From: Escherichia coli
GTDB taxonomy: Bacteria; Pseudomonadota; Gammaproteobacteria; Enterobacterales; Enterobacteriaceae
NCBI RefSeq assembly: GCF_003334335.1
Contig: NZ_QOWQ01000013.1
Strand: one strand, 5' to 3'
Length of the DNA: 64,000 nt
Part shown: piece by piece, positions 37,631 to 59,478 of the stretch
Position numbering within the stretch: the stretch's first letter is position 1
How the letters are laid out: each line of letters opens with the position of its first letter
Position numbers and translations under genes: made by a program
The notes under the pieces: model-generated
Databases searched by the model: none
Told to the model about the DNA's origin: nothing
Seen by the model: only the letters and a program-made list of their open reading frames with translations

Positions 37631-38314
37631 ATGACACAACAAGGGGATGCTGTAGCCGGGGAGCTGGCGACAGAAAAAGTGGGCATTAAAGGGTATCTGG
37701 CTTTTTTTCTCACCATAATCTTTTTCTCCGGTGTTTTTTCCGGGACAGACAGTTGGTGGCGCGTTTTTGATTTTTCCGTGCTGAACGGATCGTTTGGGCA
37801 ACTGCCTGGTGCGAACGGAGCCACCACCTCGTTTCGCGGCGCGGGTGGCGCGGGGGCTAAAGATGGCTTTCTCTTTGCGCTGGAGCTGGCACCGTCAGTC
37901 ATTCTCTCTCTGGGGATTATTTCAATTACCGATGGTCTTGGCGGATTACGCGCCGCGCAGCAGTTAATGACGCCAGTGCTAAAACCGTTGTTGGGCATTC
38001 CAGGGATCTGCTCGCTGGCGCTGATCGCTAACCTGCAAAACACCGATGCCGCCGCCGGTATGACCAAAGAGCTGGCGCAGGAAGGTGAAATTACCGAACG
38101 CGATAAAGTGATTTTCGCCGCATATCAAACCAGCGGTAGCGCCATTATCACCAACTACTTCTCTTCCGGCGTCGCGGTGTTTGCCTTTCTGGGCACGTCC
38201 GTAATCGTACCTTTAGCAGTCATCCTGGTGTTTAAATTTGTCGGAGCCAACATTTTGCGCGTCTGGCTTAACTTCGAAGAACGTCGCAACCCAACGCAAG
38301 GAGCGCAAGCATGA
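37631..38314 (+). CDS. yjiH: Nucleoside-recognition-domain inner-membrane protein YjiH
   Basis: ORF 37619..38314; start MTQQGDAV at 37631 gives 227 aa. Confidence 0.85.
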   Translation: MTQQGDAVAGELATEKVGIKGYLAFFLTIIFFSGVFSGTDSWWRVFDFSVLNGSFGQLPGANGATTSFRGAGGAGAKDGFLFALELAPSVILSLGIISITDGLGGLRAAQQLMTPVLKPLLGIPGICSLALIANLQNTDAAAGMTKELAQEGEITERDKVIFAAYQTSGSAIITNYFSSGVAVFAFLGTSVIVPLAVILVFKFVGANILRVWLNFEERRNPTQGAQA

Positions 38315-38772
38315 CAACTCAGGTCCGCAAAAACGTCATGGATATGTTTATCGATGGCGCGCGCCGTGGCTTTACTATCGCCACCACCAACCTGCTGCCA
38401 AACGTGGTGATGGCGTTTGTCATCATTCAGGCGCTGAAAATTACCGGCCTGCTCGACTGGGTGGGGCATATCTGTGAACCGGTAATGGCGCTGTGGGGAT
38501 TGCCAGGTGAAGCGGCAACCGTCCTTTTAGCCGCATTAATGAGTATGGGCGGCGCAGTCGGTGTTGCCGCCAGTCTGGCAACCGCTGGCGCATTAACCGG
38601 TCACGATGTCACCGTTTTACTGCCCGCGATGTATTTAATGGGCAACCCGGTGCAAAATGTCGGTCGCTGCCTGGGGACAGCCGAAGTGAATGCCAAATAT
38701 TACCCGCATATCATTACGGTCTGCGTGATTAACGCATTGCTGTCGATCTGGGTTATGCAGCTTATTGTTTAA
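38311..38772 (+). CDS. yjiG: Inner-membrane protein YjiG (SpmB-like)
   Basis: 153-aa ORF overlapping the yjiH stop by 4 nt. Confidence 0.85.
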   Translation: MTTQVRKNVMDMFIDGARRGFTIATTNLLPNVVMAFVIIQALKITGLLDWVGHICEPVMALWGLPGEAATVLLAALMSMGGAVGVAASLATAGALTGHDVTVLLPAMYLMGNPVQNVGRCLGTAEVNAKYYPHIITVCVINALLSIWVMQLIV

Positions 38773-38784
38773 CAAGGAGTTACC

Positions 38785-39957
38785 ATGATTGATTATACCG
38801 CAGCCGGTTTTACCCTGCTGCAGGGAGCGCATTTGTATGCGCCGGAAGATCGGGGAGTTTGCGATGTCCTCGTCGCTAACGGCAAAATTATCGCCGTTGC
38901 CAGTAATATCCCTTCTGACATTGTACCGGACTGCACGGTTGTCGATCTCAGCGGGCAGATCCTCTGCCCAGGTTTTATTGATCAACACGTTCATTTGATT
39001 GGCGGTGGCGGTGAAGCAGGTCCCACGACGCGCACGCCGGAAGTGGCGTTAAGTCCTCTGACGGAAGCGGGCGTCACGTCAGTGGTTGGTCTGCTGGGCA
39101 CTGACTCTATCTCTCGCCACCCGGAATCCCTGCTCGCCAAGACCCGTGCGCTCAATGAAGAAGGTATCAGCGCCTGGATGCTGACCGGCGCTTATCATGT
39201 CCCTTCCCGCACTATTACGGGTTCCGTGGAAAAAGACGTGGCGATTATCGATCGCGTGATTGGTGTGAAATGCGCCATCTCTGATCACCGTTCTGCCGCA
39301 CCGGACGTTTATCACCTGGCTAATATGGCGGCGGAATCCCGCGTTGGCGGTTTGCTCGGCGGCAAACCTGGCGTCACCGTGTTCCACATGGGCGACAGCA
39401 AAAAGGCGTTACAGCCTGTCTATGACCTGCTGGAAAACAGCGATGTGCCGATCAGCAAGCTGCTGCCGACCCACGTTAACCGCAACGTTCCGTTGTTTGA
39501 GCAGGCGCTTGAGTTTGCGCACAAAGGCGGCACTATCGACATCACCAGCAGCATTGACGAACCGGTCGCCCCTGCCGAAGGTATTGCCCGCGCCGTTCAG
39601 GCCGGTATTCCGCTGGCACGCGTCACCCTCAGCTCCGACGGCAACGGTAGCCAGCCGTTCTTCGATGACGAAGGGAATTTAACCCATATCGGTGTTGCAG
39701 GTTTTGAAACGTTGCTGGAAACCGTGCAGGTGCTGGTTAAAGACTATGATTTCAGTATCAGCGATGCCCTGCGCCCGCTCACCAGTAGCGTAGCCGGTTT
39801 CCTTAACCTGACCGGGAAAGGCGAAATTCTGCCTGGCAATGACGCAGACTTACTGGTCATGACGCCAGAATTGCGCATTGAGCAGGTATACGCTCGCGGC
39901 AAACTGATGGTCAAAGACGGCAAAGCCTGCGTGAAAGGAACGTTTGAAACGGCATAA
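38785..39957 (+). CDS. iadA: Isoaspartyl dipeptidase IadA
   Basis: 390-aa ORF; amidohydrolase HxH motif (DQHVHLIGGGGE). Confidence 0.92.
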   Translation: MIDYTAAGFTLLQGAHLYAPEDRGVCDVLVANGKIIAVASNIPSDIVPDCTVVDLSGQILCPGFIDQHVHLIGGGGEAGPTTRTPEVALSPLTEAGVTSVVGLLGTDSISRHPESLLAKTRALNEEGISAWMLTGAYHVPSRTITGSVEKDVAIIDRVIGVKCAISDHRSAAPDVYHLANMAAESRVGGLLGGKPGVTVFHMGDSKKALQPVYDLLENSDVPISKLLPTHVNRNVPLFEQALEFAHKGGTIDITSSIDEPVAPAEGIARAVQAGIPLARVTLSSDGNGSQPFFDDEGNLTHIGVAGFETLLETVQVLVKDYDFSISDALRPLTSSVAGFLNLTGKGEILPGNDADLLVMTPELRIEQVYARGKLMVKDGKACVKGTFETA

Positions 39958-40021
39958 ACGGTTGTCAGCCGCCCGAATGGACGTAGAATGCCCGCAAGGG
40001 CGGCTGACAGAGTAAAACGTA

Positions 40022-40933
40022 ATGGATGACTGTGGTGCGGTTTTGCATAATATTGAAACCAAATGGCTTTATGATTTTCTGACCCTGGAAAAATGCCGCA
40101 ACTTTTCCCAGGCGGCAGTCAGTCGCAACGTCTCGCAACCGGCATTCAGCCGCCGCATCCGTGCACTGGAACAGGCGATTGGCGTTGAATTGTTTAACCG
40201 CCAGGTGACGCCGCTGCAACTCTCGGAACAAGGGAAAATCTTCCATTCGCAGATCCGCCATCTGTTGCAACAGTTAGAAAGCAACCTTGCAGAACTCCGT
40301 GGCGGCAGCGATTACGCGCAACGTAAAATCAAGATAGCCGCTGCACACTCTCTTTCCCTCGGTCTGTTACCGTCCATTATCAGCCAGATGCCGCCGCTCT
40401 TTACCTGGGCGATTGAAGCCATTGATGTTGATGAAGCGGTCGATAAACTGCGTGAAGGGCAAAGTGACTGTATTTTTTCCTTTCACGACGAAGATTTGCT
40501 GGAAGCGCCGTTTGACCACATTCGCTTATTTGAATCTCAATTGTTCCCCGTCTGCGCAAGTGACGAACACGGAGAAGCACTGTTTACCCTCGCGCAGCCA
40601 CACTTTCCGTTACTGAATTACAGCCGCAACTCCTACATGGGGCGATTGATTAATCGCACCCTGACGCGCCACAGTGAGTTAAGTTTCAGCACCTTTTTTG
40701 TCTCTTCGATGAGCGAGCTTTTAAAGCAGGTTGCCCTCGACGGCTGTGGGATTGCCTGGCTGCCGGAGTACGCCATCCAACAAGAAATTCGCAGCGGGCA
40801 GCTCGTTGTACTGAATCGGGAAGAACTGGTGATCCCGATTCAGGCCTACGCATACCGGATGAATACCCGCATGAATCCAGTTGCCGAACGCTTCTGGCGT
40901 GAACTGCGCGAGCTGGAGATTGTGCTTAGCTGA
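40022..40933 (+). CDS. hypT: LysR-family transcriptional regulator HypT (YjiE)
   Basis: 303-aa ORF; N-terminal LysR-type HTH. Confidence 0.9.
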
Positions 40934-41318
40934 CATTCTCCAGCGTCGCACTACGCCAACCGCCATTATCCCAGACCAGATCAAACGTTAGCGGTTCATC
41001 GTCGTGGTACAGCATTATCTCAAGGCTGATCGCCAGCGTGTGGCTGTACGCTTCTTTCAAATTGACCTGCAACGCCGCAATCCGTGGCTCATGAAATAAC
41101 AGTGCAGAACGTAGCTGACGGCAATACCAGCTCTGAAGATGTTTGTCGCTCTGGTTATGCACTTGCCACTCGGGCATGCCTGAAACAAGTAATGACGGTA
41201 ATGCCGAATGAGGAGAATTAAAAAGAGTGAGGAGATCGCTGCATACCGATTTACGCAGCAATGACGTTTTATTGCCTGAAATTTCAGGTAAAACAGCCTG
41301 AAGTGATTGGCGCATCAT
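40926..41318 (-). CDS. iraD: Anti-adaptor protein IraD (RpoS stabiliser)
   Basis: ORF 40926..41327; convergent with hypT and overlapping it by 8 bp; start chosen at [15 protein letters not shown]. Confidence 0.85.
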
Positions 41319-41989
41319 TTTGCGCACTCCTGACGTTTAGCAACATATGCGGCTTGCCCTGAACACCGGGCACCACTGTATTGATGCTCATTTTCCATAG
41401 CCATTCCCTTTTGTTCATTACATCCATGTCAGTCTGAGACAGGCCTGAATCCTGTCAGCAAAGTATAAAACCTTACTTGCCTATGAATATCTACTGACTT
41501 TTCAGGAAAAAAGTCATGATTTGATAAAAATCATCAAACTCAAAAAAAAACCGCTAGTATATTCTGAATATTCCGAATAGTTACGTAGATGAAAATACTT
41601 GTCACCGCCGCTACTTAATTCCGGTGGGAAATTATTTATTTCCGCATAATCAGCCATGCATTATTTGAAACAATTAGTTTGTAAATAATATAAATTGATA
41701 ACATATCAAATACATCAAAAATACCATTCACAGGCATTATTAATATAGACATCAATATAGCAACATCAAATTCCAATTAGTAATAAGATATGCTTTTAAA
41801 TTGCATGCAAATAATTTTAAATGAGCGTTTTTTGATACTTTAGAGTGTTTCCCACCCTTTAATATCACCGTGTAGAGTTGATATCACTACAACAGAAACA
41901 TGCATGTCATTTGTTTACTTCTCTTTTTACTACAGAAAAATTTATCTATTTTTCTAAACATCAGTGAAATACTCATAAAGGTAACTATT

Positions 41990-42820
41990 ATGTCTATGCC
42001 ATTAAGCAATGCCCTTCAGAGTCAAATTATTACAGATGATCACTTCCTTCATCATCCAAAAGTCGACAATAAGTTAACATGTGAATATGAATATGCACGC
42101 ATGGATACGGAAAATATCTATCTTCTGCCTCTTACTCGTGGCAATAACCATAATTACGATGGAAAAAGCGTTGTCGAAATTAGAAAACTTGATATTAGTA
42201 AAGAGTCCTGGCCATTTAATTATGTGACAGAAACATGCAGAGAATCCGATGGTATTACAACAACAGGACGTATGCTCTATCGAAACTTGAAAATCACCTC
42301 AGCTTTAGACGAAATATATGGTGGTATATGTAAAAAGGCGCATGCTGCCACAGAGTTAGCAGAAGGATTACAACTAAATTTATTTATGAAGAGCCCTTTC
42401 GATCCTGTTGAGGACTATACAGTTCATGAAATAACATTAGGCCCTGGTTGCAATGTTCCTGGTTATGCCGGAACCACAATAGGATATATTTCAACCCTTC
42501 CAGCTTCTCAGGCAAAAAGATGGACCAATGAGCAGCCAAGGATTGATATCTATATTGATCAGATAATGACGGTAACAGGGGTAGCAAATTCTTCCGGATT
42601 CGCCCTTGCCGCATTACTTAATGCTAATATTGGGATGGGAAATGACCCAATAATTGGTATAGAAGCCTATCCAGGTACCGCGGAGATCCATGCAAAAATG
42701 GGATATAAAGTTATCCCCGGTGATGAAGATGCAAAACTCAAACGTATGACTCTGCAACCGTCATCTCTTCCAGAGCTATTTGAATTAAAAAATGGTGAAT
42801 GGAATTATATTGGTAAATAA
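41990..42820 (+). CDS. yjiC: Uncharacterised protein YjiC
   Basis: ORF 41900..42820; internal start MSMPLSNALQSQ at 41990 gives 276 aa; AT-rich gene. Confidence 0.8.
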   Translation: MSMPLSNALQSQIITDDHFLHHPKVDNKLTCEYEYARMDTENIYLLPLTRGNNHNYDGKSVVEIRKLDISKESWPFNYVTETCRESDGITTTGRMLYRNLKITSALDEIYGGICKKAHAATELAEGLQLNLFMKSPFDPVEDYTVHEITLGPGCNVPGYAGTTIGYISTLPASQAKRWTNEQPRIDIYIDQIMTVTGVANSSGFALAALLNANIGMGNDPIIGIEAYPGTAEIHAKMGYKVIPGDEDAKLKRMTLQPSSLPELFELKNGEWNYIGK

Positions 42821-42960
42821 CCACTGAGAAGAATGAGTACTAATATTCAGGTTATACAGATATTTAAACAATACCCTGTAATTTACAAAGTAATACTCAT
42901 TGCGACTTCTTAATTTAAGAAAGCGCAAGGAACGTTTACCCTTGCGCTTATCATAATAAG

Positions 42961-43734
42961 TCAGGCGTCGACTTTATCCAGCGGCCATGAATCAAACAGA
43001 TAGCCGTCAAAATAAATATCGTCAACGTTCGAGAATTCCAGCAAACGTTGTTTAACGTTTTCCAGATGCTGCCACATTGCCAGCTTCGCCGCTCGGGCAT
43101 CTTTTTTGATTAACGCGGCGAGGATCTGTTTGTGATCGCCCAACCACTCTTTGCGATACAGGCTGTCATCCAGATGGCTGTGCAACTGGATCCACATCGG
43201 ATTGTTTTCCCGCCACTGCCAGGACTGACGGAATAGCTCCACCAGCATGCTGTTATGCGTCGCTTCGGCAATGGCGAGATGAAACTGCATGTCACCACTT
43301 TCGCTGCTGCCCGGTGCGCTGGAAGCCAGTTCACGCTCTTCCAGTTGTAATGCCTGGCGCATTTTGACGATATCTTCGCGGGTAGCCTGCAGGGCGGCAA
43401 ATTCCGCGATGTTACTTTCCAGTAACTGACGCGCCTGTAACAGCTCAAAAGGACCCGCATCATTGCAGACGTTGGCATCCGGACCGTCTGTGTTCTGGCT
43501 GCCTGAGCTATCAAGAACATAGATACCGGCACCCCGACGCACTTCCACCAGCCCTTTGATCTCCAGCATGATCAGCGCTTCACGTACCACCGTCCGCGTG
43601 ACATCAAGCATTTCTGCAATTTCACGCTCCGGCGGCAGCCGTTCGCCAGGATTGTACGGCGTCTTTATGATCAGATCGCGGATCATCGCCCCGACTTCCT
43701 GGTAAGGTCTTTGCGCAGAGGTGGCAGATTTCAT
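42961..43734 (-). CDS. uxuR: GntR/FadR-family repressor UxuR
   Basis: 257-aa ORF with GntR HTH, adjacent to uxuBA. Confidence 0.92.
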   Translation of the reverse strand: MKSATSAQRPYQEVGAMIRDLIIKTPYNPGERLPPEREIAEMLDVTRTVVREALIMLEIKGLVEVRRGAGIYVLDSSGSQNTDGPDANVCNDAGPFELLQARQLLESNIAEFAALQATREDIVKMRQALQLEERELASSAPGSSESGDMQFHLAIAEATHNSMLVELFRQSWQWRENNPMWIQLHSHLDDSLYRKEWLGDHKQILAALIKKDARAAKLAMWQHLENVKQRLLEFSNVDDIYFDGYLFDSWPLDKVDA

Positions 43735-43771
43735 GGTGTTGTGTCCGTTAGATGCGGTTAATCAAATTTTT

Positions 43772-43806
43772 GCCGGATGCGGCGTGAATGCCTTATACGG
43801 CCTACA
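43772..43806. repeat. REP element
   Basis: gccggatgcggcgtgaatgccttatacggcctac. Confidence 0.55.
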
Positions 43807-43948
43807 ACGGGCAATTTTACGGCACCCGTTAATCTCAAACTATACCATTAGCACTGGAAGTTGGCACGTACAGGTGGGCAAAAAAACGAAAACTGGTCAA
43901 CCAAATATGCGTTTGATTGACCAGTAAGTCTGTAGGGTAATCAGTTAG

Positions 43949-45409
43949 TTACAGCGCAGCCACACACTCGCGCGCACCGCGTTCGCACAGCTGCTGATAT
44001 GCCGTCGTCACCGCGCCAACAAAGTCGGCATTCTGCGGCAGATCATCGGCAAAGATACCACTCAGGCCCAGCAGCGCTTTCACGCGGTCTGCGCCCTGAT
44101 ACTGCGCGTTGATCTTCTGGAACTCCGCCAGCATCGGGTCGACCACGTCAATAGCTTTACCCTGCTCATCCACGCCCTGGGTGTAACGCATCCAGCCAGC
44201 CACGCCCAGCGCCAGATGACGCCAGCTACCGCCGTTTTGCAGGTGCAGACGCACCGGATCCAGCAGACGCTGGGGTAACTTCTGGCTGCCGTCCATTGCA
44301 ATCTGCCAGGTACGGTGACGCAGAGACGGGTTGCTGAAACGCTCGATCAGCAGCGTCGCATAGGCGTTCAGGTCTGTACCTTCCGGCATCGACAGCGTTG
44401 GCGCTTGTTCCTGCATCATCAGGGCAAAGGCCGCTTTGCGATAATCCGGGTTAGTCATGGTGTCGGCAATAGTTTCATAGCCGCCGAGGTAACCGAGGTA
44501 CGCCAGGAAAGAGTGGCTGCCGTTCAGCATACGCAGCTTCATCATTTCGAACGGCACAACGTCTGCAACAAACTGTGCGCCCACTTTATCCCAGTCCGGG
44601 CGACCATTAACGAAGTTATCTTCAATTACCCACTGACGGAACGGTTCGCAGGCAATGGCGCACGGGTCGTAAACACCCAGCTGGTCAGCAATTTCCTGTA
44701 AGGTTTCTGGCGTCGCCGCCGGAACGATGCGGTCAACCATGGTGCACGGGAAGGTGACGTTCTCTTCAATCCATGCCGCCAGCTGTGGATCACGCGCCTG
44801 AGCCAGCCCCAGAACCGCGACCTTCGCCACATGACCGTTTTCACGCACGTTGTCGCAGGACATCACCGTAAACGCTTTCAGCCCTTTTTCACGACGCAGG
44901 CGCAAGGCTTCGACGATGTAACCAATCGCGGACTTCGGCGCAGTCGGGTTTTCCAGATCGTGCTTGATCAGCGGGTTATTGAGATCCAGCTGACCGCTTG
45001 CCGCATCGGCGCAATAACCTTTTTCCGTGACCGTCAGGGAGGCAATCGCCGTCTGCGGACGCGCCATCGCGTTGAGAATACCTTCACAACCGTCGATTTC
45101 CGGATGCAGGGCTTCTTTCATCGAACCGATAATTTTCAGCTCGGTGCTTTCTGCGCCTTTTTCCGCCACGGTGTATAGCAGTTGCTGTTTTTTCAGGTTT
45201 TCGATCAGCACGCGGTCGTTACCTGGCATCAGGTTAACTTCGCAGATACCCCAGTCGCTGTCGGTGCTTTCCAGCAGATGATGGGTGTACAGCGCCTGGT
45301 GCGCGCGGTGAAACGCCCCGCAACCGAGATGCACAATGCGTGATTCCAGACGAGAATGATCCCATGACGGGCGGGCAACCGGCAGATTGCTGTCAACAAT
45401 AGTAGTCAT
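43949..45409 (-). CDS. uxuB: D-mannonate oxidoreductase (fructuronate reductase) UxuB
   Basis: 486-aa ORF; Rossmann motif near N-terminus (HLGCGAFHRAHQ). Confidence 0.92.
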   Translation of the reverse strand: MTTIVDSNLPVARPSWDHSRLESRIVHLGCGAFHRAHQALYTHHLLESTDSDWGICEVNLMPGNDRVLIENLKKQQLLYTVAEKGAESTELKIIGSMKEALHPEIDGCEGILNAMARPQTAIASLTVTEKGYCADAASGQLDLNNPLIKHDLENPTAPKSAIGYIVEALRLRREKGLKAFTVMSCDNVRENGHVAKVAVLGLAQARDPQLAAWIEENVTFPCTMVDRIVPAATPETLQEIADQLGVYDPCAIACEPFRQWVIEDNFVNGRPDWDKVGAQFVADVVPFEMMKLRMLNGSHSFLAYLGYLGGYETIADTMTNPDYRKAAFALMMQEQAPTLSMPEGTDLNAYATLLIERFSNPSLRHRTWQIAMDGSQKLPQRLLDPVRLHLQNGGSWRHLALGVAGWMRYTQGVDEQGKAIDVVDPMLAEFQKINAQYQGADRVKALLGLSGIFADDLPQNADFVGAVTTAYQQLCERGARECVAAL

Positions 45410-45489
45410 CGTAAACTCCAGAATCCGTCTTCAGAGAGTGACGGCAAGGAAGAAGGAACCGGCACGGCGCGCAGCCATGCCGGTGGATA

Positions 45490-46674
45490 TTAACGGCTAA
45501 AGAAAGCGCGCTGGATCGCCAGTTCGACACCGCGAACTTCGGCCAGGCCTTTCAGACGACCAATTGCGGAGTAACCTGGGTTGGTTTTCTTCTTCAGGTC
45601 GTCCAGCATCTGATGACCGTGGTCCGGACGCATCGGGATCAGGTCTTCTTTGCCTTCCGCTTTACGACGGTGTTCTTCTTCAACAATCGCTTTCACCACT
45701 TCGTACATATCAACGTCACCGTTCAGGTGCGCCGCTTCGTGGAAGGTTTTCGGGTTATCTTCACGCATGGTGGAGCGCAGATGGGTGAAGTAAATACGCG
45801 GACCAAACTGCTTGATCATATCAACCAGATCGTTGTCAGCACGCACGCCGTAGGAACCGGTGCACATGGTAAAACCGTTCGCCATGCTGTTTACGGTATC
45901 AACCATCCACTGCATATCTTCAATGGTGGAAACAATGCGCGGCAGGCCGAGGATCGGGCGCGGCGGATCGTCCGGGTGAACAGCCATACGCACGCCAACT
46001 TCTTCGGCAACCGGAATAATGGCTTTCAGGAAGACAGCAAAGTTTTCGCGCAGTTTGGCTTTGTCGATATCTTTGTACAGCTCCAGGTGCTTACGGAACT
46101 GGTCGAGGGTGTAGCCTTCTTCCGCGCCCGGCAGACCGGCAATGATGTTACGGGTCAGACGCGCTTTGTCTTCGTCGCTCATAGTAGCGAAGCGAACAGC
46201 AGCCTGAGCAATTTCTTCTTCGGTGTAATCCGCTTCCGCGCCTGGACGCTTCAGGATATGCATTTCGAATGCAGCGAATTCGATCTGGTCGAAGCGCAGC
46301 GCTTTGGAGCCGTCCGGCAGCACGTATTCGAGGTCAGTACGGGTCCAGTCGAGCACCGGCATGAAGTTGTAGCACACGGTGCGAATGCCGCACTGCGCCA
46401 GGTTGCGCAGGGTCTGCTGATAGTTAGCGATCCACTGCTCGTAGTTGCCAGTGTGGGTTTTGATATCTTCGTGAATTGGCACGCTTTCTACGACAGACCA
46501 CACCAGGCCTGCGTCTTCAACGATCGCCTTGCGTTTGAGGATCTCTTCTACGGACCATACTTCGCCGTTCGGGATATGGTGCAGCGCGGTAACCACGCCA
46601 GTTGCGCCCGCCTGACGGACATCAGCTAAAGAAACCGGATCGTTTGGGCCGTACCAGCGCCAGGTCTGTTCCAT
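45490..46674 (-). CDS. uxuA: D-mannonate dehydratase UxuA
   Basis: ORF 45490..46710; start [16 protein letters not shown] at 46674 gives 394 aa. Confidence 0.92.
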
Positions 46675-47013
46675 GATTTTTCCTCTTTCACATAGTGGGT
46701 TCCACAGCAAAGAGACGCGGAACCCCGGAGTTGTTTAGGTATCCGGATGAACAACCAGACCGCAGCCGTGGCGTTGCATCGGATGAGATGGCGTATAAGT
46801 TCTACCTTTTGGTAAGACATGTCAACCCGAAATCTGAAATTGGTTAACCACATCACAAGAATTTTACTCTCACGGTTGTTGCTGCAAATTGCAGCAAAGG
46901 GTAATCGATGGTTATTGATCAGAGGATGTGACATTCATCGCAATAATGGTTGACCAATTTACATAACATGTCGCCCAAAATAACAACGGTTCAACCAGGT
47001 AAGGTAAAACGTT

Positions 47014-48357
47014 ATGCATGTGCTTAACATTCTCTGGGTGGTATTCGGCATTGGCCTGATGCTGGTACTGAATTTGAAGTTCAAAATCAATTCAATGGTG
47101 GCTTTGCTAGTGGCGGCGCTGTCCGTCGGGATGCTGGCGGGCATGGATTTGATGTCGCTGCTGCACACCATGAAAGCGGGCTTCGGCAACACGCTGGGGG
47201 AACTGGCGATCATCGTGGTGTTCGGTGCGGTCATCGGTAAATTGATGGTCGACTCCGGCGCGGCGCACCAGATAGCGCATACGCTGCTGGCGCGTCTCGG
47301 TCTGCGCTATGTACAGCTGTCGGTAATTATCATCGGCCTGATTTTCGGTCTGGCGATGTTCTATGAAGTGGCCTTTATCATGTTAGCGCCGCTGGTTATC
47401 GTGATTGCCGCCGAAGCTAAAATCCCGTTCCTGAAACTGGCGATCCCGGCAGTAGCAGCAGCCACTACCGCACATTCACTGTTCCCACCGCAGCCGGGTC
47501 CGGTGGCGCTGGTGAATGCTTATGGCGCAGATATGGGGATGGTTTATATCTATGGCGTCCTGGTGACGATCCCAAGTGTCATCTGCGCAGGTCTGATCCT
47601 GCCGAAGTTCCTCGGCAATCTTGAGCGCCCAACGCCATCATTCCTGAAAGCAGATCAACCGGTAGATATGAATAATCTGCCCTCTTTCGGCGTTTCGATT
47701 CTGGTGCCGCTGATCCCGGCGATCATTATGATCTCCACCACCATCGCCAATATCTGGCTGGTAAAAGATACCCCTGCGTGGGAAGTGGTTAACTTTATCG
47801 GTTCCTCGCCGATTGCAATGTTTATTGCGATGGTGGTTGCATTCGTACTCTTTGGTACCGCGCGTGGTCATGACATGCAGTGGGTGATGAACGCTTTTGA
47901 AAGCGCGGTGAAGAGCATTGCAATGGTGATTCTGATCATCGGTGCGGGTGGCGTGCTGAAGCAGACCATCATCGACACCGGCATTGGTGACACCATCGGC
48001 ATGTTGATGTCCCACGGCAATATCTCGCCCTACATCATGGCATGGCTGATCACCGTACTGATTCGTCTGGCGACGGGTCAGGGTGTGGTTTCGGCGATGA
48101 CCGCTGCCGGGATTATCAGTGCAGCAATCCTTGATCCAGCAACTGGTCAGCTGGTTGGCGTGAATCCGGCGCTGCTGGTACTGGCGACGGCTGCGGGTTC
48201 CAACACCCTCACCCACATTAACGATGCCTCATTCTGGTTGTTCAAAGGTTACTTTGACCTGTCAGTAAAAGACACGTTGAAAACCTGGGGTCTGCTGGAG
48301 CTGGTCAACTCCGTGGTTGGGCTGATTATTGTTTTGATTATCAGCATGGTAGCGTAA
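47014..48357 (+). CDS. gntP: Gluconate/fructuronate transporter GntP
   Basis: 447-aa GntP-family permease ORF divergent from uxuA. Confidence 0.92.
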
Positions 48358-48367
48358 AAGAGCACCT

Positions 48368-48395
48368 GAGCCTGCCATTGGCAGGCTCTGTTCGG
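48368..48395 (+). terminator. Hairpin terminator after gntP, followed by a REP element (about 48423..48458)
   Basis: agcctgcc attg gcaggct stem-loop; downstream gccagatgcgacgctgacgcgtcttatctggcctac REP. Confidence 0.5.
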
Positions 48396-48530
48396 ATTGT
48401 CGACAAAGTGCGCTTTGTTTATGCCAGATGCGACGCTGACGCGTCTTATCTGGCCTACAGAGGGCTAACGTGCAGTTTTTTAGCTTCAGGCAATATTGCG
48501 TACCAGCATTAGCAATGCCCTGTAATTTTT

Positions 48531-49433
48531 TTATTGATAAACAAAAGTCACGCCAATAATCGATTGCACATTCCCTGCAGTCACCTGCCCTCCGGTACGT
48601 GCGTAATTTGCCGTTAATCCCAGACTTACCGCCGAAGTCCCTACTGCTCCTAACGATACCGTGTTATTCGCTGGAATAATCGTACCGTTGCGCGTCAACT
48701 GTACGCCGACGCCCTGCGCTGGTGAAAACGACGCGGTATTGGTGAAAATCGAGTTGCCCGCATCTGCGGTTGTGCCGGAGAGGTAAAACCCCAGGTTTTG
48801 GCTTTTCGCACAATAAACGGTAAGAGGAATCGGCACCGAACCGGGATAGTCCGGCAGAGTAACGGTGACATCACGAGCAGAAACATCGCAGCCGCCAGTA
48901 GGCACCACCACATCATTATTGGCGTAAATATTCCACACAAACTGGAAATCATCGCTGTTATAGTTGTTGGTCTGTCGCAAAATAAGCACGGCAATTAATG
49001 AGCCAGCTTTAATCGCCACCCCGCCCGCACTGCTCACAGGCGTCAAATAAAGCGCCACCGGCCACGGCTTATCCGTTCTCGAATTATAAACAACGCGCGG
49101 CGTTTCGCTGGTGGTAGGAAATGGATAGCTACTGCCACTATATTTTACGGTCCCGGAAAAATTAGATAACACGCCGCCATAAGCAGAGCCTCGTTGCAGT
49201 GTGACATAGTCTGTAATGGTTTCCGGGTAATCGTTATGGCAAAAGATTTGCGTCGAAAGATCTACGACCAGGTTTTGCCCCACATTCACGGCGGGCGCAA
49301 GGTTTACATAAACATTGGCGCTGCCACCGCCAATAGGGATAGCGGTGCCATTGGCGGTTTTACAGGCGAATGACCAGGCATTTACCGACCAGCCCATCAG
49401 CAGTGCAGCAAACAGGTTAATAACTCGTTTCAT
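48531..49433 (-). CDS. fimH: Type 1 fimbrial adhesin FimH (mannose-binding)
   Basis: ORF 48531..49442; start MKRVINLFAALLMGWSVNAWS gives 300 aa; FACKTANGTAIPIGGGSANVYVNLAP lectin-domain start. Confidence 0.95.
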   Translation of the reverse strand: MKRVINLFAALLMGWSVNAWSFACKTANGTAIPIGGGSANVYVNLAPAVNVGQNLVVDLSTQIFCHNDYPETITDYVTLQRGSAYGGVLSNFSGTVKYSGSSYPFPTTSETPRVVYNSRTDKPWPVALYLTPVSSAGGVAIKAGSLIAVLILRQTNNYNSDDFQFVWNIYANNDVVVPTGGCDVSARDVTVTLPDYPGSVPIPLTVYCAKSQNLGFYLSGTTADAGNSIFTNTASFSPAQGVGVQLTRNGTIIPANNTVSLGAVGTSAVSLGLTANYARTGGQVTAGNVQSIIGVTFVYQ

Positions 49434-49452
49434 TACAATCATCTCTTCGGCT

Positions 49453-49956
49453 TCAGCTGTAGGTATAGGTGATGCTAATCACTGCCTGAATGGTTCCCTG
49501 AGTGGCTCCGCCATTTACCGTCAATGCTCTGACCTGTAACGGGAAGTGCGCTGATTGTGAGGAATCATCCACCTGAACTGTTTTGGTTGCGCCAGTATTC
49601 AATGTGTTGCCACTGTCATCCTGTAGCTCTAACTGGATGTTTTGCGCGGTCCCTTGGTTTTTATAATATCCGGTACTGTCGGCTGCCCCGCTGAAGCTGG
49701 CGGTGACCCTCGACGTTCCCACCGGACAATTAGTCAACTCAAGCGCAACATCATGCCAGGCCGATGCCGCCCCGGCAGACATCAGACTGAAAGAATAAAG
49801 ATCGCCGCGATCTACCGTGGCATTGGTGGTGGAAACCGTGCACGGTTTGGCGACGACCTTACCGTTCACCGTGATGGTGACATCGGCTGCCTGTATCGTC
49901 GCACTTGCGAGCGCCAATATTGCCGCCAATACATACCCACGTTTGCACCATTTCAT
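49453..49956 (-). CDS. fimG: Type 1 fimbrial minor subunit FimG
   Basis: 167-aa pilin-like ORF within the fim operon. Confidence 0.92.
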   Translation of the reverse strand: MKWCKRGYVLAAILALASATIQAADVTITVNGKVVAKPCTVSTTNATVDRGDLYSFSLMSAGAASAWHDVALELTNCPVGTSRVTASFSGAADSTGYYKNQGTAQNIQLELQDDSGNTLNTGATKTVQVDDSSQSAHFPLQVRALTVNGGATQGTIQAVISITYTYS

Positions 49957-49968
49957 GAGCATCTCCAG

Positions 49969-50499
49969 TTACTGATATTCAAGAGTGAAGGTAGCCGTGG
50001 CATTGATATGCCCCGCAGTGACAGGCACCTGTGTCGCCATTAGCCGGGCGTAAAAATTCAGCGTATTTGGTTTACCCGGCGTCAGGGTCGTCCACGAAAT
50101 CGCGGACGATGGGGCATTAATGGGTATCTGATTTTGTTGCTCATTCAGAAGCTGTATTCCCAGTCCCGCAGCCGCTGACACCGTATTTTCAAGTGCAAGC
50201 AGGTTGGCATTGTGGCTATCTGCAACACCGGTAAACCCAACTTTTACGGCAGAAACGGCATTACCACAGGGTGACAGCAAAATACGAAATGGAACGACAG
50301 GAGTCGTCGCGCCAATGTTGTTAAATTGCTTCGCCGCGTTTTCCATCAGATCAACAGTAAAATTGGTTGATTCAGCGGCCACACTACAGCCGTTATCTCT
50401 GACATAGCCGCGGATAGTAATCGTGCTATCCGCAGCCAAAGCGTGACTTACCGCCAGCCACAAAAAAGCGCACAGAAGATAAAAAGGTTTGTTTCTCAT
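49969..50499 (-). CDS. fimF: Type 1 fimbrial minor subunit FimF
   Basis: 176-aa pilin-like ORF. Confidence 0.92.
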
Positions 50500-50508
50500 C
50501 ACGCCCCC

Positions 50509-53145
50509 TTAACGACATTCAGCTGATAGCTGGGTTAATAACTGCTGCTGACTCTCTGGTGGCAGTTGATAATTGGCGACACAGTGAGCATTTTCCTCTT
50601 CTCCCCATTTCACCTGAACTTTTCCCGCTAAAGGCATTCCGCTGAGGTAAACCTGACCATTATCCGCAACAATGCCGCTACTCTGGCTACTCTCTGATGT
50701 CACCATCGCCCCAAACGGCAGCGGCTTATTATTGTGGGTTAGCGTCATGAGCAGTTTTATCCCAACGCGCGCTTTAAACTCTGCTCGCACGATCGCCCCA
50801 CGGGTGGGAACAACGTTAGCGACCGCGTTATCTAAATCGACGTTATCAGCCAGGGTATTGGTATCCAGCGCTACTCTGTTCTCCCGATATTCAGTGGCAT
50901 AAGGCAGCACGGCATAACCGCGCCAGTCGGTACGCACCCCCGTCTGGTTTTCGACTTTTGCATCTTTTGCGCCAGGCGCTTTAACAAGCACCACCGTATC
51001 GTTTAACGGCTGCCCCAGCGTTACGCCATTGGCATGAGCCAGTACCCCACCGCTGACTCCGTAATAGGGCTGCTTAATATCATCGCTATGGCTGTAACCG
51101 ATGTTGGCATTGCCGTAACCACCGCGATAATTCAGCGTGGCGTAGCCTGTACTTCCGCTATTACCATCACCTCCCCCGGCGTAACCGGTTTGCACGCTAT
51201 AGCTGAGGTTGTTGTCTTCCAGCAACGTACCGTATACACCGACCAGATTGGTCATCCGACCGTTGAGATCGTGTGACATGCTGTAACTGGCACTGGCATG
51301 TCGCCACTGAGATTTACTGTCAGAACGCAGCCAGTGGCTGAAAGGAATATTGACGTTAAGCGCTAACATCTGATCCCGTCCTTTTTGCCAGGCGTTTTTC
51401 GTCAGGCTATAGCTGAGCGTCCAGTTGATATCTTCGAATGCAGTATTTAAACCAGCCTGGAATTGCTCATCGACATTACTCGTTCCCCAATAAGTTTGAT
51501 GGCTACCACTCAAATACAGTGTTGATGTGCGCCCGAGTTGCTGAGTAACGGTGAGTTGTAATTTCCCGCGTTTGTTATAAGCGAGATTGTAATAGTCGGT
51601 GAATTTCGGCTTAACCTGAATAACACCATCCTGTGTTTCGATGTTGTAGCCATTCATTCGACTGTATGTTGTATCAGCGAAATTAAAATATCCGCTGGTC
51701 GAATAACGGTAACCCACTAACTGAATATTCGTGCCTGATTCATTGAGCGATTTGTTATAGAGAAAACGCACCGATTGTCCGTCATGCTGACTGTCATCGG
51801 GAAGTGTGGAATTAGCCTGCGTCATATCCACAGACAGAGCGCCCAGTGCCCCCATGTTTTTCCCGATACCGAAATTAAACGCACGATAACGATCCGACAG
51901 TTGCGTTCCACCATATATTGTCCAGCCAGCCGGAAGGCCGTGGAGTAATGTACTCTGGAAAAAGCGGGGTTTTTCCTGCTGCGCATTTCCACTACGGTAT
52001 TCTCCTGCCGTAATGGAATAACGAGTATGCCCTTCACGTTGCAAAAGCGGGACTGACGAATAGGGTACGGTAAAGATCTGCGTGCTGCCGTCAGCCTCTT
52101 TAATCGTTACCTGCAAGTCACCACTATTACCTGCGGCATAGATATCGTTGATGGTAAAAGGCCCCGGCGGCACCGTACTATTATAAATGTCATACCCATT
52201 TTGTTTAATAGTGACCTGTGCAGTACCACGAGCAATACCGTGGATCACCGGGGCAAATCCTCTTTGGCTATCGGGTAACATATTGTCATCTGAGGCCAAT
52301 TGTGCGCCGCGAAAGTTAATACCATCGAAAATATCGCCCTGGGTATAACCATCACCCAGCGTCAGCCGGGAACGTAACGGAATTATGTCTCGCTCAAGCC
52401 AGGTATTGATATGCTGCCATTTATTTTTGCTACCTGATGAACTGTCGCTACTGTTATAACTCCAGGTGGTATTGTCGCGTAAACGCCACGCACCAATATT
52501 TAACCCACTCTGTAGGTTTAAATATGCATAATGGCTGTTACCCCCAATCCGATTCTGTACACTATTTCCGCTGAAATTATAATTGAGCAATCCGGCATTA
52601 ATACCAGGATCCCATAACTCAGGAGGAATATAACCACGCGCGCGATTACTCATAAATGCCTGAGGGATCGTCAGGTTGAGTCGCTGCTGACCAACATCCA
52701 GATGCGCAGTAGCGTCATGGATCATTGAGGTTAATGGCACGCAGGCATCATCCGCCAGCAGATTCATACCGGAGACAGAAGCCGTATTCAGCCCCATACT
52801 TGCAAGTTGCGCGCGTGTCAGGCAGGGAACAATCCCTTGTTCACTGTCGCCCGTATTAAATGTGACATCACGCGTTGCCATATAACCATTATTCAAATAG
52901 ATATCGACACGATACGTCCCTGGCGGTAATTCTTGCCCATTTTCAAAACGCGATAAATCGGCCACAGCCTGGGGATCATCCGCTAAAAAGCGCGGATTAA
53001 AATAGAGTTCGGCAGATGACAAAGGTGCCTGTGCGGCAAAAGCACAGGCGACAAAGAGCCGGACAAAAAAACCAGCCAAACGATGCTTACGAATATGCAA
53101 GCATTGTGTGTTTCGCTGGTAAAGTCTTAAATTCAGATATGACAT
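50509..53145 (-). CDS. fimD: Type 1 fimbrial outer-membrane usher FimD
   Basis: 878-aa usher ORF. Confidence 0.95.
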   Translation of the reverse strand: MSYLNLRLYQRNTQCLHIRKHRLAGFFVRLFVACAFAAQAPLSSAELYFNPRFLADDPQAVADLSRFENGQELPPGTYRVDIYLNNGYMATRDVTFNTGDSEQGIVPCLTRAQLASMGLNTASVSGMNLLADDACVPLTSMIHDATAHLDVGQQRLNLTIPQAFMSNRARGYIPPELWDPGINAGLLNYNFSGNSVQNRIGGNSHYAYLNLQSGLNIGAWRLRDNTTWSYNSSDSSSGSKNKWQHINTWLERDIIPLRSRLTLGDGYTQGDIFDGINFRGAQLASDDNMLPDSQRGFAPVIHGIARGTAQVTIKQNGYDIYNSTVPPGPFTINDIYAAGNSGDLQVTIKEADGSTQIFTVPYSSVPLLQREGHTRYSITAGEYRSGNAQQEKPRFFQSTLLHGLPAGWTIYGGTQLSDRYRAFNFGIGKNMGALGALSVDMTQANSTLPDDSQHDGQSVRFLYNKSLNESGTNIQLVGYRYSTSGYFNFADTTYSRMNGYNIETQDGVIQVKPKFTDYYNLAYNKRGKLQLTVTQQLGRTSTLYLSGSHQTYWGTSNVDEQFQAGLNTAFEDINWTLSYSLTKNAWQKGRDQMLALNVNIPFSHWLRSDSKSQWRHASASYSMSHDLNGRMTNLVGVYGTLLEDNNLSYSVQTGYAGGGDGNSGSTGYATLNYRGGYGNANIGYSHSDDIKQPYYGVSGGVLAHANGVTLGQPLNDTVVLVKAPGAKDAKVENQTGVRTDWRGYAVLPYATEYRENRVALDTNTLADNVDLDNAVANVVPTRGAIVRAEFKARVGIKLLMTLTHNNKPLPFGAMVTSESSQSSGIVADNGQVYLSGMPLAGKVQVKWGEEENAHCVANYQLPPESQQQLLTQLSAECR

Positions 53146-53211
53146 TATTCCTCCGGTTTAAAATCACCTGGCAGTCAATTCTTTTTATTCAGGCGAAAAA
53201 TTCCCCCTGCG

Positions 53212-53937
53212 TTATTCCATTACGCCCGTCATTTTGGGGGTAAGTGCGCCATAATCATTTATTGTTCGGTAAGTAATATTGCTTCCTGCATCAGAAGGCA
53301 ATTTAACCGTGCTTTCGCCCATTGGAGGCACCAATGCATTTTCAAGAACCCGGGTTCCGGCATTCAACTCTGTTACCGTCAGGTAATAGGGTGTCGGGTT
53401 AATCAGAGTCAGAGAATTCGCGCTACGACGAAATCTTAATTTTTCTGCGGCCTGATCGGGTGGCAACGCTAATTTAGCCGGGCGATAGTACAGTTTAATG
53501 CGGCTGATAATTGCGAGCTGTAGCGTATTCTCAGTCAATTTTGATTTATCCATTGACGGAATCGCTTTAACGTTCATCCAGAATAAACTTTCCCGATCCT
53601 GTGGCAATTGGTTATTTGTTGCATCAAGAATACGTAAGGTATTCTCTTTTTTTCCCTTCATCGCAAACAGAGGTGGCGTCACGATAAAACGACCATCCTT
53701 TACACCATCGGCATTTTCCACCCATGATTGAATTAAATAGGTGCTATTTTCATCATTATTTGTCACGGCAAGTTGCACTTGTTTTTGCCCTGCCGGATAA
53801 ATTACGCGAGTCGCACCTAAGGCCACTCCCGCTTCGGCGCGTCCGGCAACCATCATTGCCATGAACATCAGGATACCTGCCAGCAAGCAGAATGTTATTT
53901 CCTGCGATTTCCTTACATTGACGTTTTTATTACTCAC
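53212..53937 (-). CDS. fimC: Type 1 fimbrial periplasmic chaperone FimC
   Basis: 241-aa PapD-like chaperone ORF. Confidence 0.95.
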   Translation of the reverse strand: MSNKNVNVRKSQEITFCLLAGILMFMAMMVAGRAEAGVALGATRVIYPAGQKQVQLAVTNNDENSTYLIQSWVENADGVKDGRFIVTPPLFAMKGKKENTLRILDATNNQLPQDRESLFWMNVKAIPSMDKSKLTENTLQLAIISRIKLYYRPAKLALPPDQAAEKLRFRRSANSLTLINPTPYYLTVTELNAGTRVLENALVPPMGESTVKLPSDAGSNITYRTINDYGALTPKMTGVME

Positions 53938-53973
53938 TGTCCTGTTCCTGTTATCACATTATCTGCTGAACAA

Positions 53974-54513: not shown

Positions 54514-54577
54514 CGTTATTTTTATCGCACAAGGGTGGGCATCCCTGCCCGTAATGACGTCCCTGAACCTGGGTAGG

Positions 54578-55132: not shown

Positions 55133-55251
55133 ACTGCTTTCCTTTCAAAAAACTATTTCTAAATCGACATGGGCAGTCGTTCCGTACACTTTGTTTTGTC
55201 AACGAGTTTGACTGCCAACACTGCACAGTTTCCCCCCAAAAGATGAAACAT

Positions 55252-55566: not shown

Positions 55567-55613
55567 TTGTCTTGTATTTATTTGTTTTTTACCTTTACTA
55601 TCAATAAGTTAAA

Positions 55614-58302: not shown

Positions 58303-58322
58303 GGTATAACAGGTATAAAGGT
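58303..58322. promoter_or_regulatory. NanR operator-like GGTATA repeats in the nanC promoter region
   Basis: ggtataacaggtataaaggt: two exact GGTATA hexamers and a third degenerate copy. Confidence 0.55.
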
Positions 58323-59459: not shown

Positions 59460-59478
59460 TAGACAGGAGACAGTCACA

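Follow-up and report, generated by a model that had tools for sequence, protein, structure and literature searches.

The overlapping coding ends of hypT and iraD at the GimA locus of Escherichia coli: a probable lineage-specific scar with a hairpin common to both genes

Tail-to-tail overlap of coding sequences is an ordinary arrangement in E. coli: the reference genome contains 75 convergent overlapping pairs (PMC4161906), against a total of some 704 pairs that converge (preprint 10.64898/2026.03.23.713779). Among tail-to-tail pairs with overlapping 3' transcripts, which in some species include the coding ends, antisense regulation has been demonstrated for mscL-arfA (PMC10070815). This pair and kptA-yjiJ, a neighbour of the locus described here, belong to the list of MG1655 convergent excludons (PMC12288877). 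Two kinds of hairpin without the features of an intrinsic terminator have been described at 3' ends. Bidirectional terminators, reported by Ju et al. 2019 and presented in passages by Wang et al. (preprint 10.1101/2022.10.23.513370), are non-intrinsic hairpins at convergent gene boundaries, and the published list is cited in part of a later preprint (10.64898/2026.03.23.713779) as holding 306. The protective 3' stem-loop of a Rho-dependent transcript is a stable stem-loop with no U-rich sequence after it (PMC6061677); the steady-state 3' end of such an RNA is expected just past the stem, and bicyclomycin-sensitive termination further on.

The junction between hypT (yjiE) and iraD (yjiD) is the GimA locus, for which three patterns were published by Homeier et al. 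2010 (PMC2878320). According to the relevant passages of that study, GimA has a G+C content of 46.2% and was originally described as a genomic island, no mobility genes were found near it, and its phylogeny tracks the core genome. On the other side of iraD, the leader peptide IdlP mediates CsrA control of iraD translation (PMC5574718).

The window (the whole stretch of DNA analysed, 64,000 nt of an E. coli contig) contains this junction. The initial annotation had reported a convergent 8-bp overlap of the two coding ends under these gene names, and both the overlap and the names were confirmed. In the window sequence hypT ends in ...GAG ATT GTG CTT AGC TGA (stop codon 40931-40933) and, on the other strand, iraD ends in ...GAG AAT GTC AGC TAA (stop codon 40928-40926), with TTAGCTGA in common (Table 1). 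Hits of a 1,601-nt query over the locus carry hypT, iraD, idlP and iadA annotation. The overlap is annotated at exactly the window coordinates in the nearly identical strain NY1601, and the K-12 MG1655 RefSeq record has the identical 8 bp (iraD, 4556993..4557385, +; hypT, 4557378..4558289, -). The NY1601 annotation was rejected as a guide to the entire window, as the two are collinear only from roughly 16 kb to 44 kb. Both members of the pair are genuine genes, with proteins that have solved structures or close solved homologues: HypT matches PDB 5YDW across residues 1-301 (E = 3e-166), and IraD matches PDB 6OD1 chain B through ...ATLENVS. A chance test has little meaning for an overlap of two fixed stop codons. 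The overlap is already known, being in the reference annotation; added here are its connection to the states of the GimA locus and the hairpin formed by both coding tails.

Table 1. Features at and around the hypT-iraD junction (window coordinates).
Feature	Position	Strand	Basis
hypT (yjiE/qseD) CDS, 303 aa, LysR-type regulator, intact, W15 present	40022..40933	+	ORF; RefSeq of strain NY1601
Second inverted repeat, within hypT CDS, perfect 11-bp core CTGAATCGGGA / TCCCGATTCAG	40804..40850		repeat search
Hairpin left arm GCGAGCTGGAGATTGT = hypT coding (..R E L E I V)	40908..40923		repeat search + minimum-free-energy fold
Hairpin loop GCTTAGCTG, 9 nt: iraD stop + first two bases of hypT stop	40924..40932		repeat search + fold
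Hairpin right arm ACATTCTCCAGCGTCGC, G40945 bulged = iraD coding, - strand (..A T L E N V)	40933..40949		repeat search + fold
Convergent CDS overlap TTAGCTGA	40926..40933	both strands	iraD stop (40926-40928, - strand) through hypT stop (40931-40933)
iraD (yjiD) CDS, 130 aa, K-12-type allele	40926..41318	-	ORF + RefSeq annotation
Candidate rut region, hypT transcript, antisense to iraD 3' coding sequence	40934..41013	+	composition only
Divergent haplotype block, from hypT stop (+4 nt) to uxuR stop	40938..42960		identity + G+C profile
idlP, iraD leader peptide (ORF27); 4-nt overlap with iraD start	41315..41398	-	annotation

The 1,601-nt query matched 5,396 of 5,426 complete E. coli genomes, and the 8-bp-overlap junction was found in 4,881 of the 5,426 (about 90%). 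A non-overlapping iraD tail with its own hairpin was present in 512 genomes, and 247 of these carry a hypT-GimA junction. In the non-overlap state either the 20-kb GimA island or a pptE remnant of ~0.4 kb lies between the genes, iraD has 127 codons and a TAA stop of its own, and a separate stem-loop follows each gene. The window has the GimA-negative pattern, with iraD and hypT adjacent and no GimA-derived sequence between them; the GimA+ (20 kb) and remnant patterns of Homeier et al. were also recovered here, from complete genomes and at the same chromosomal site. The passages of that study that were searched make no mention of a coding overlap, a changed IraD C-terminus or a hairpin (PMC2878320).

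The two iraD alleles are equal in length to codon 127, where the B2 type ends; the K-12 type continues with AAT GTC AGC TAA. Their C-termini are ...TMPQ and ...TLENVS, respectively. In the window these three sense codons and the stop (40937..40926) are the antisense of hypT-side DNA, and TTAGCTGACATT adjoins hypT in a GimA+ strain too, where iraD is 20 kb away. Elsewhere in the genus, E. albertii has a full-length pptE adjoining a 127-aa iraD without overlap, the stop codons are about 430 bp apart in Escherichia sp. E1V33, and E. whittamii has a different fusion, with an iraD of 134 aa and a 21-bp overlap. Citrobacter 'IraD' homologues (about 52% identity) were rejected as an outgroup: they are TssE proteins in complete type VI secretion clusters and do not lie beside hypT. 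The comparison favours genes separated by GimA or by its remnant as the ancestral Escherichia arrangement.

The change in sequence at the junction is abrupt. Identity between the window and B2-type strains is 97-98% up to 40922/40937 and 77-78% over 40955-41582, with a sharp break at the hypT stop; no match was found over 41583-42960, and identity returns to 96-97% from 42961 on. The divergent block contains the K-12-type iraD, idlP, ytiD, ytiC and yjiC, and G+C content is ~30% at 41450-42050 and at most 0.42 up to about 43100. K-12-type and B2-type iraD have ~82% nucleotide identity, and the B2 type has 87% with E. albertii. A simple deletion does not explain this divergence of the K-12-type allele; either the K-12 and B2 haplotypes are old, or one of them was imported. 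No exact breakpoint can be assigned. The imperfect short repeats that flank GimA (CATTATTCTGCAG and CATTTACTGCGG) are statistically uncompelling (by our own estimate, the two junction zones would yield ~0.14 matches as good as these by chance).

An inverted repeat that the initial annotation did not mention is centred on the overlap (arms 40912-40923 and 40933-40944, extending to 40908-40949) and exceeds chance. The hairpin folds with -24.3 kcal/mol on the + strand (z -4.3) and -26.8 kcal/mol on the - strand (z -5.5), and none of 200 shuffles was as good. Of all 51-nt windows across the 64 kb it ranks within the top 0.1%, and only three loci, this one included, have both strands at or below -24 kcal/mol. 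The stem is G+C-rich and 15-16 bp long, formed by hypT and iraD coding tails that are nearly reverse-complementary, and both stop codons lie in the loop or at its edge. A REP element or mobile-element end was rejected as the source of the palindrome: the arms are in-frame coding sequence of both genes, and there is a single copy per genome (median 1).

The stem varies among natural strains. The 47-nt hairpin segment (40905-40951) has five variable sites in 15 sampled genomes, two of which break stem pairs; no compensatory pairs were found in the stem among these genomes, and the structure is confined to one E. coli haplotype. G40924A, a common polymorphism in the loop, leaves the folding energy unchanged. 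Natural strains have C, A or G at position 40941, each of them synonymous in iraD; the non-C alleles lose a G-C pair without compensation at 40915, and their hairpins fold with -17.7 to -20.3 kcal/mol. The GimA+, remnant and E. whittamii junctions do not have the junction hairpin: at the GimA+/remnant-type junctions each gene has a hairpin of its own (-21 and -22 kcal/mol), and the 21-bp overlap of E. whittamii has none. The B2-type iraD tail reads CTGCGG, the hypT-side sequence CTGCAG and the K-12 type CTCCAG, and both differences in the K-12 motif raise its complementarity to the CTGGAG of hypT.

A scan for intrinsic terminators over 39800-42000 on both strands returned 0 terminator-like sites. 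The junction has the G+C-rich stem-loop of such a terminator but not the U-tract directly after it: the tails that follow the stem are ACUACGCCAACC (+ strand) and GCAGUUCACGCC (- strand), and no run of at least 4 T occurs within 300 nt. The second inverted repeat in hypT (-20.2 and -22.4 kcal/mol, z -2.5 and -3.2), which on the iraD transcript lies ~60 nt downstream of the junction hairpin, has no U-tract after it either. The 80 nt after the hypT stop contain C at 0.35, G at 0.20 and 15 YC dinucleotides, and the C-minus-G excess past hypT is at the 97th percentile of 80-nt windows when measured from the stop and the 88th when measured from the hairpin end. On the iraD transcript, C is not enriched in the 80 nt beyond the hairpin (29th percentile), and by composition a release by Rho would be less obvious on that side. 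The Term-seq (PMC7815308) and SMRT-Cappable-seq (PMC6131387) tables have no entries for iraD or hypT 3' ends. An Rfam 15 covariance-model search of 38000-44000 (E <= 1) gave no match at the junction, the sole hit being a sub-threshold naRNA4 at 43757-43802.

The junction stem-loop resembles the protective 3' stem-loops of Rho-dependent transcripts (PMC6061677) in being stable and without a U-tract, and on the hypT transcript a C-rich stretch lies directly downstream, where that study placed rut sites. It differs from them in that it is made of two coding sequences, contains both stop codons, would serve both strands and has no obvious C-rich tract on the iraD side. With the bidirectional terminators that Ju et al. 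2019 reported, in the account given by passages of preprint 10.1101/2022.10.23.513370, it shares the position of a non-intrinsic hairpin at a convergent boundary; those are defined by mapped 3' ends of both transcripts, with termination that depends on collision and not on Rho, and are described as lying between genes, whereas the junction hairpin, identified here in genomic sequence, lies inside both coding sequences and its stem is not conserved.

Taken together, the overlap is probably, though with considerable room for doubt, a lineage-specific structural scar between two functional genes, capped by a passive hairpin, and not an evolved regulatory device. The DNA between the genes is absent from the haplotype of K-12 and the window, in which the iraD frame would have lost its native stop; the frame runs three codons (N-V-S) into the antisense of the last codons of hypT and reaches a TAA, producing the 8-bp overlap. 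As the overlap is lineage-specific and an apparent by-product of structural change, evolved regulatory coupling is argued against. At the level of RNA, neither transcript would stop at an intrinsic terminator, and each polymerase would read through the hairpin into the partner gene and be released further on, plausibly by Rho; for hypT the C-rich tract follows directly. Exonucleases would next shorten the RNA as far as the hairpin, a passive cap that the two mRNAs would share at their 3' ends. The stable overlap would thus be short (about 45 nt) and intramolecularly paired, so that sense-antisense pairing would be limited and not promoted, and interference between the two weakly expressed genes would be expected to be small. 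A passive 3'-end structure is the most likely role of the hairpin in this model; synonymous variants in natural strains disrupt a stem pair, and no second change offsets them.

Other accounts of the overlap and of its origin were weighed against this one. That one of the proteins truly stops earlier, so that no genuine coding overlap exists, has a negligible chance of being right: no support for it was found, and it was raised only since short C-terminal extensions are sometimes mis-called. The stop codons are unambiguous, the sequence has no earlier in-frame stop, the same ends stand in the K-12 annotation and in all the annotations examined of GimA-negative strains (K-12-type junction), and the IraD chain in the crystal extends to ...ENVS. 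The polarity of the change could also be the reverse, with the overlap ancestral and GimA, later cut to the remnant, inserted at the junction and giving iraD a new stop. The lower G+C content of GimA and its first description as a genomic island, in the passages of PMC2878320 cited above, would agree with an insertion, as would the short imperfect direct repeats that flank it, and the K-12-type iraD, as the most divergent allele, could represent the older lineage. We regard this order of events as quite improbable, since the outgroup E. albertii has pptE beside a 127-aa iraD, the non-overlapping iraD end is common to E. albertii, E. sp. E1V33 and B2-group E. coli while the fused states differ (8 and 21 bp), and the same passages report for GimA no nearby mobility genes and a phylogeny like that of the core genome.

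The remaining accounts give the junction a function. The initial annotation had suggested mutual interference between a hypochlorite-response regulator and an RpoS anti-adaptor, to be doubted if both transcripts terminated efficiently ahead of the overlap. Since each full-length mRNA includes its own stop codon, the two transcripts necessarily overlap, and termination ahead of the overlap can therefore never occur. The geometry on which the suggestion was built thus stands, as does the lack of an intrinsic terminator over 39800-42000; the interference itself is physically possible and unsupported, the pair being missing from the MG1655 excludon list and from the dsRNA and 3'-end tables searched. 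In its full form, as an excludon, convergent transcription would bring about mutual repression through polymerase collision, RNase III cleavage of the duplex or both, and would tie RpoS stabilisation to the response to hypochlorite. E. coli has many convergent excludons, which tend to short intergenic distances; mscL-arfA shows that an overlap of a 3' coding end with a 3' UTR can be regulatory (PMC10070815), and the published work consulted on iraD regulation used 5' fusions, which would miss a 3' effect (PMC5574718). Yet the 165 convergent excludons detected in 50% or more of 58 MG1655 transcriptomes (PMC12288877), a list that does hold mscL-arfA, do not include iraD-hypT. No hits to iraD, hypT, yjiD or yjiE occur in the p19 dsRNA capture supplements (PMC7373196), from a method that captures few 3'-UTR duplexes. 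These absences, and those from the 3'-end tables, carry little weight, given the poor expression of both genes, which may hide an overlap, and the chance that some of the supplementary tables are incomplete. A full-text literature search for iraD/yjiD and hypT/yjiE as a convergent pair or with a terminator returned only a strain-deletion table. The iraD mRNA is so scarce that the reporter-fusion transcript from the iraD promoters was undetectable by Northern blot in wild type (PMC5574718), and head-on polymerase encounters should consequently be rare. The arrangement is moreover absent from the 512 non-overlap E. coli genomes and from other Escherichia species, hence not a conserved design, and the intramolecular hairpin competes with intermolecular pairing; we find an excludon here hard to credit. 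Somewhat less improbable, though still unlikely, is a selected bidirectional terminator that would pause converging polymerases, which head-on or trailing collisions would then release, and that formed, or was refined, once the loss of GimA had taken both 3' hairpins with it. The junction has one feature of the SEnd-seq class, a strong symmetric stem-loop exactly at a convergent gene boundary and unlike an intrinsic terminator, in keeping with the published description (preprint 10.1101/2022.10.23.513370); the hairpin occurs only in the haplotype that lost both separate hairpins, and the K-12 CTCCAG differences increase pairing with hypT. Against such selection, the synonymous C/A/G variation at 40941 weakens the stem and is uncompensated, E. 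whittamii tolerates its overlap with no hairpin, and collision-driven release needs frequent transcription from both sides, which these genes are unlikely to provide. A more elaborate history, which we hold to be rather doubtful, is that after the loss of GimA and of both 3' hairpins a weak quasi-palindrome was perfected, perhaps by replication template-switching (CTGCAG or CTGCGG to CTCCAG, plus loss of ATT), into a de novo stem-loop of two coding sequences with both stops in its loop, now a shared bidirectional terminator and 3'-end protector; if true, a terminator would have been rebuilt from two coding sequences.

The overlap itself carries little weight for biology: it stands in the reference annotation, E. 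coli has about 75 overlaps of this kind, and nothing found links it to regulation. Read as a structural scar with a passive cap, the junction is a worked example of how a convergent coding overlap may come about from the mere loss of intergenic DNA, with a stop codon borrowed from the antisense of the neighbour. Because the stop of iraD is borrowed from hypT-side antisense, the C-terminus of IraD differs among E. coli lineages. Published studies of iraD regulation, built on 5' fusions, would not have detected effects at the 3' end. In K-12-type strains the last codons and a strong hairpin are common to both genes, so that a clean deletion of one changes the 3' end of the other.

The DNA around the junction was searched with a 1,601-nt query, which matched 5,396 of 5,426 complete E. 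coli genomes and was 99.8% identical to strain NY1601, where the matched annotation comprised iadA, hypT, iraD and idlP: the window is E. coli chromosome. Collinearity with NY1601, the best genome match, extended only from ~16 kb to 44 kb. Position-by-position identity was at random levels in 1-16000 and 44000-64000, pointing to indels or rearrangements on both sides.

An 8-bp overlap of the convergent hypT (yjiE) and iraD (yjiD) coding ends had been reported in the initial annotation, and was borne out by the stop codons of the window (...GTG CTT AGC TGA for hypT, ...AAT GTC AGC TAA for iraD) and by the RefSeq annotation of K-12 MG1655, which carries the identical overlap (iraD 4556993..4557385, hypT 4557378..4558289). 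The overlap is already in the reference annotation. As a class it is ordinary, since 75 convergent overlapping pairs are counted in the E. coli reference genome (PMC4161906) against a total of ~704 convergent pairs (preprint 10.64898/2026.03.23.713779). The features are listed in the table below; the ORF listing stretches iraD to an upstream GTG at 41327. The same 8-bp overlap was found in a 605-bp contig labelled Bacillus coahuilensis m4-4 (NZ_ABFU01000118.1), which carries iraD and the hypT 3' end; the encoded proteins are 98-100% identical to those of E. coli, and the contig is almost certainly E. coli contamination of that assembly.

Features of the hypT/iraD junction (window coordinates)
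Feature	Position	Strand or location	Description
hypT	40022..40933	+	ORF, 303 aa
iraD	40926..41318	-	ORF, 130 aa
hypT/iraD CDS overlap	40926-40933	both strands	8 bp, TTAGCTGA
Inverted-repeat arms	40912-40923 / 40933-40944		12 nt, 92% complementary, 9 nt apart
Left hairpin arm		hypT coding sequence	residues R-E-L-E-I-V
Right hairpin arm		iraD coding sequence	residues A-T-L-E-N-V
Second inverted repeat	40804-40850	inside hypT CDS	perfect 11-bp stem CTGAATCGGGA / TCCCGATTCAG, 11-nt loop
Divergent haplotype cassette	40938-42960	hypT stop to uxuR stop	delimited by identity to B2-type strains

A strong inverted repeat, unremarked in the initial annotation, holds the overlap in its loop; allowing one mismatch and one bulge, it can be extended to 40908-40949. 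Within the 9-nt loop are the stop codon of iraD and two bases of that of hypT. This junction hairpin is real: the calculated RNA folding energy is -24.3 kcal/mol (z -4.3) for the hypT strand and -26.8 kcal/mol (z -5.5) for the iraD strand, 0/200 shuffles were as stable in either case, and on both strands it ranks in the top 0.1% of 51-nt windows across the full 64 kb. As no U-tract follows the stem on either strand, the hairpin does not qualify as a canonical intrinsic terminator. Terminator-like sites in 39800-42000 numbered 0 on both strands (mean of 2.2 in shuffled sequence), and no Rfam family matched at the junction.

Only three loci in the 64-kb window have folding energies of at most -24 kcal/mol on both strands, including the junction hairpin and the iadA-hypT intergenic hairpin. 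The latter (39958-40012, -30.8 kcal/mol, z -5.5) fills the space between the two genes and contains the best promoter-like site of the region, TTGTCA-16-TAGAAT (39962-39989), which would place iadA termination and hypT initiation in the same 60 nt. The only other such locus in a non-terminator context is 15485-15560 (GCGGUGCGGAUGUG…CACACCCGCACCGC); its counterpart in NY1601 lies between hsdS and symE, a tentative assignment given that the window is non-collinear with NY1601 there.

The site between yjiD and yjiE is described in PMC2878320 as the GimA locus, with three states: the full 20.3-kb GimA, a 342-bp pptE remnant, or empty. All three were recovered here. Strain FDAARGOS_1299 carries 20 kb between hypT and iraD, with ibeA, nhaC, dhaR, gcl, hyi, dhaKL and ptsP/pptE, and strain 2014C-3338 carries a ~0.4-kb 'PEP-binding protein' fragment. 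With junction-specific queries, the overlapping (K-12-type, GimA-negative) junction was found in 4,881/5,426 genomes and an alternative iraD end in 512, 247 of which have the hypT-GimA junction. In the alternative state, iraD encodes 127 aa, ending in …WHRTMPQ*; each gene has a hairpin of its own behind it (-22 kcal/mol for iraD, -21 kcal/mol for hypT), and the hypT-stop region is unfolded (-9 kcal/mol, z +0.5). In FDAARGOS_1299, codon 15 of hypT is a stop (W15*; 419-520 of the compared sequence), and the annotated gene begins at an internal start (284 aa, N-terminal 19 residues removed); the hypT of the O157 strain 180-PT54 is annotated at the same shorter length (855 nt). The window hypT is intact, unlike this W15* allele.

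Past the last hypT codons, the string TTAGCTGACATT is present in the window and also in the GimA+ strain, whose iraD is 20 kb off. K-12-type and B2-type iraD (the 127-aa allele with its own stop) are colinear through codon 127, past which the B2 type has TAA and the K-12 type AAT GTC AGC TAA, the reverse complement of TTAGCTGACATT. The K-12-type tail is therefore antisense of the hypT-side string: iraD lost its own stop and borrowed three codons and a stop from the hypT tail. Comparison of relatives favours loss of intervening DNA between the two genes as the polarity of the change: full-length pptE adjoins a 127-aa iraD in E. albertii, ~430 bp separate the two stop codons in Escherichia sp. 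E1V33, E. whittamii has another fusion (iraD of 134 aa, 21-bp overlap with a different hypT tail, …EPG*, no hairpin), and strain E69 keeps a K-12-like iraD tail (…KVS*) with hypT since lost. GimA is flanked by short imperfect direct repeats, CATTATTCTGCAG 3' of the hypT stop and CATTTACTGCGG spanning the iraD stop. Recurrent deletion could have occurred between them, but they are statistically not compelling and do not pin down the breakpoint. In E69 (CP089930.1, 3390-3470), hypT is reduced to a diverged ~25-nt remnant of its 3' end, and iraD converges straight on iadA and its terminator hairpin.

Identity to B2-type strains is 97-98% as far as 40922/40937, falls to 77-78% over iraD and its leader, and is back to 96-97% from the uxuR stop at 42961; the AT-rich ytiD-ytiC-yjiC segment (G+C minimum ~30%) has no match in B2-type strains. 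At the nucleotide level, K-12-type and B2-type iraD share ~82% identity, a greater distance than that between the B2 type and E. albertii (87%); the E. whittamii and E1V33 genes match the B2 type at 96-97%. The yjiC protein is only 62% identical to its E. albertii counterpart. This pattern indicates that the overlap is more than a recent deletion, being the left boundary of a cassette that is old, evolves fast or was exchanged. The closest non-Escherichia relatives of IraD (Citrobacter contigs, gene 4001-4372; ~52% identity, some source-named 'IraD') are the TssE baseplate gene of complete type VI secretion clusters (VipA, VipB, Hcp, TssE, TssF, TssG, ClpV), which makes iraD look like an orphan member of the TssE/gp25 family that is restricted to Escherichia.

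The junction hairpin was found only in the haplotype that lacks the two separate hairpins, and where other types have CTGCGG or CTGCAG, the K-12 type has CTCCAG, both differences raising pairing with hypT CTGGAG. This would be consistent with selection or with a quasi-palindrome perfected from a template. Other observations speak against selection: about half of the 4,881 genomes have one or two differences from the window in the 47-nt hairpin segment; the commonest change in 15 sampled genomes, G40924A, is in the loop; and E. whittamii tolerates an overlap with no hairpin. Position 40941 is C, A or G in the same sample, all synonymous in an iraD Leu codon; the non-C alleles break a G-C pair, lowering the stem to -17.7 to -20.3 kcal/mol, and none of the 15 genomes had a compensating change. 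The hairpin is thus not demonstrably selected. It is unlikely that a terminator was rebuilt from two coding tails after the original ones were lost.

The hairpin is probably consequential for RNA ends. Steady-state 3' ends of E. coli Rho-dependent transcripts lie just past stable stem-loops with no U-tract, which shield the RNA from 3'-5' exonucleases, with rut sites immediately beyond (PMC6061677). The hypT transcript resembles these, its hairpin being followed by a C-rich, G-poor stretch (C/G 1.75 in the first 80 nt past the stop, 97th percentile in the window; 88th when counted from the hairpin end), whereas on the iraD transcript the 80 nt after the same hairpin are not C-rich (29th percentile). 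The second inverted repeat, which folds at -20 to -22 kcal/mol on either strand and is also present with small changes in E. whittamii, lies ~60 nt further along the iraD transcript. The most likely mechanism would be that both polymerases read through the junction and are released further downstream, and that both RNAs are trimmed back to the common hairpin. Collision-driven termination at a pausing hairpin, already described for convergent pairs (preprint 10.1101/2022.10.23.513370), would be anatomically compatible with the junction, but requires frequent transcription from both sides, and Northern blots of the wild type gave no signal even for a reporter fusion transcribed from the iraD promoters (PMC5574718).

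The initial annotation had also proposed mutual interference between the two regulators. Its genes and geometry were right, and transcript overlap is unavoidable, so interference is physically possible; the overlapping pair mscL-arfA is comparable (PMC10070815). Nothing positive favours a regulatory hypT/iraD link, however, and the arrangement is not conserved, even inside E. coli. A list of 165 convergent excludons, each present in half or more of 58 MG1655 transcriptomes, contains mscL-arfA and the nearby kptA-yjiJ but not this pair (PMC12288877), and neither gene has an entry in the published dsRNA or 3'-end tables searched; these negatives are weak, because both genes are lowly expressed. 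Published work on iraD regulation relied on 5' fusions (PMC5574718), which places 3' effects outside its reach. In sum, hypT and iraD form a convergent overlap of an ordinary kind at the GimA locus, which is already known; added here are the borrowed iraD C-terminus and a hairpin, formed by two coding sequences, that holds both stop codons.
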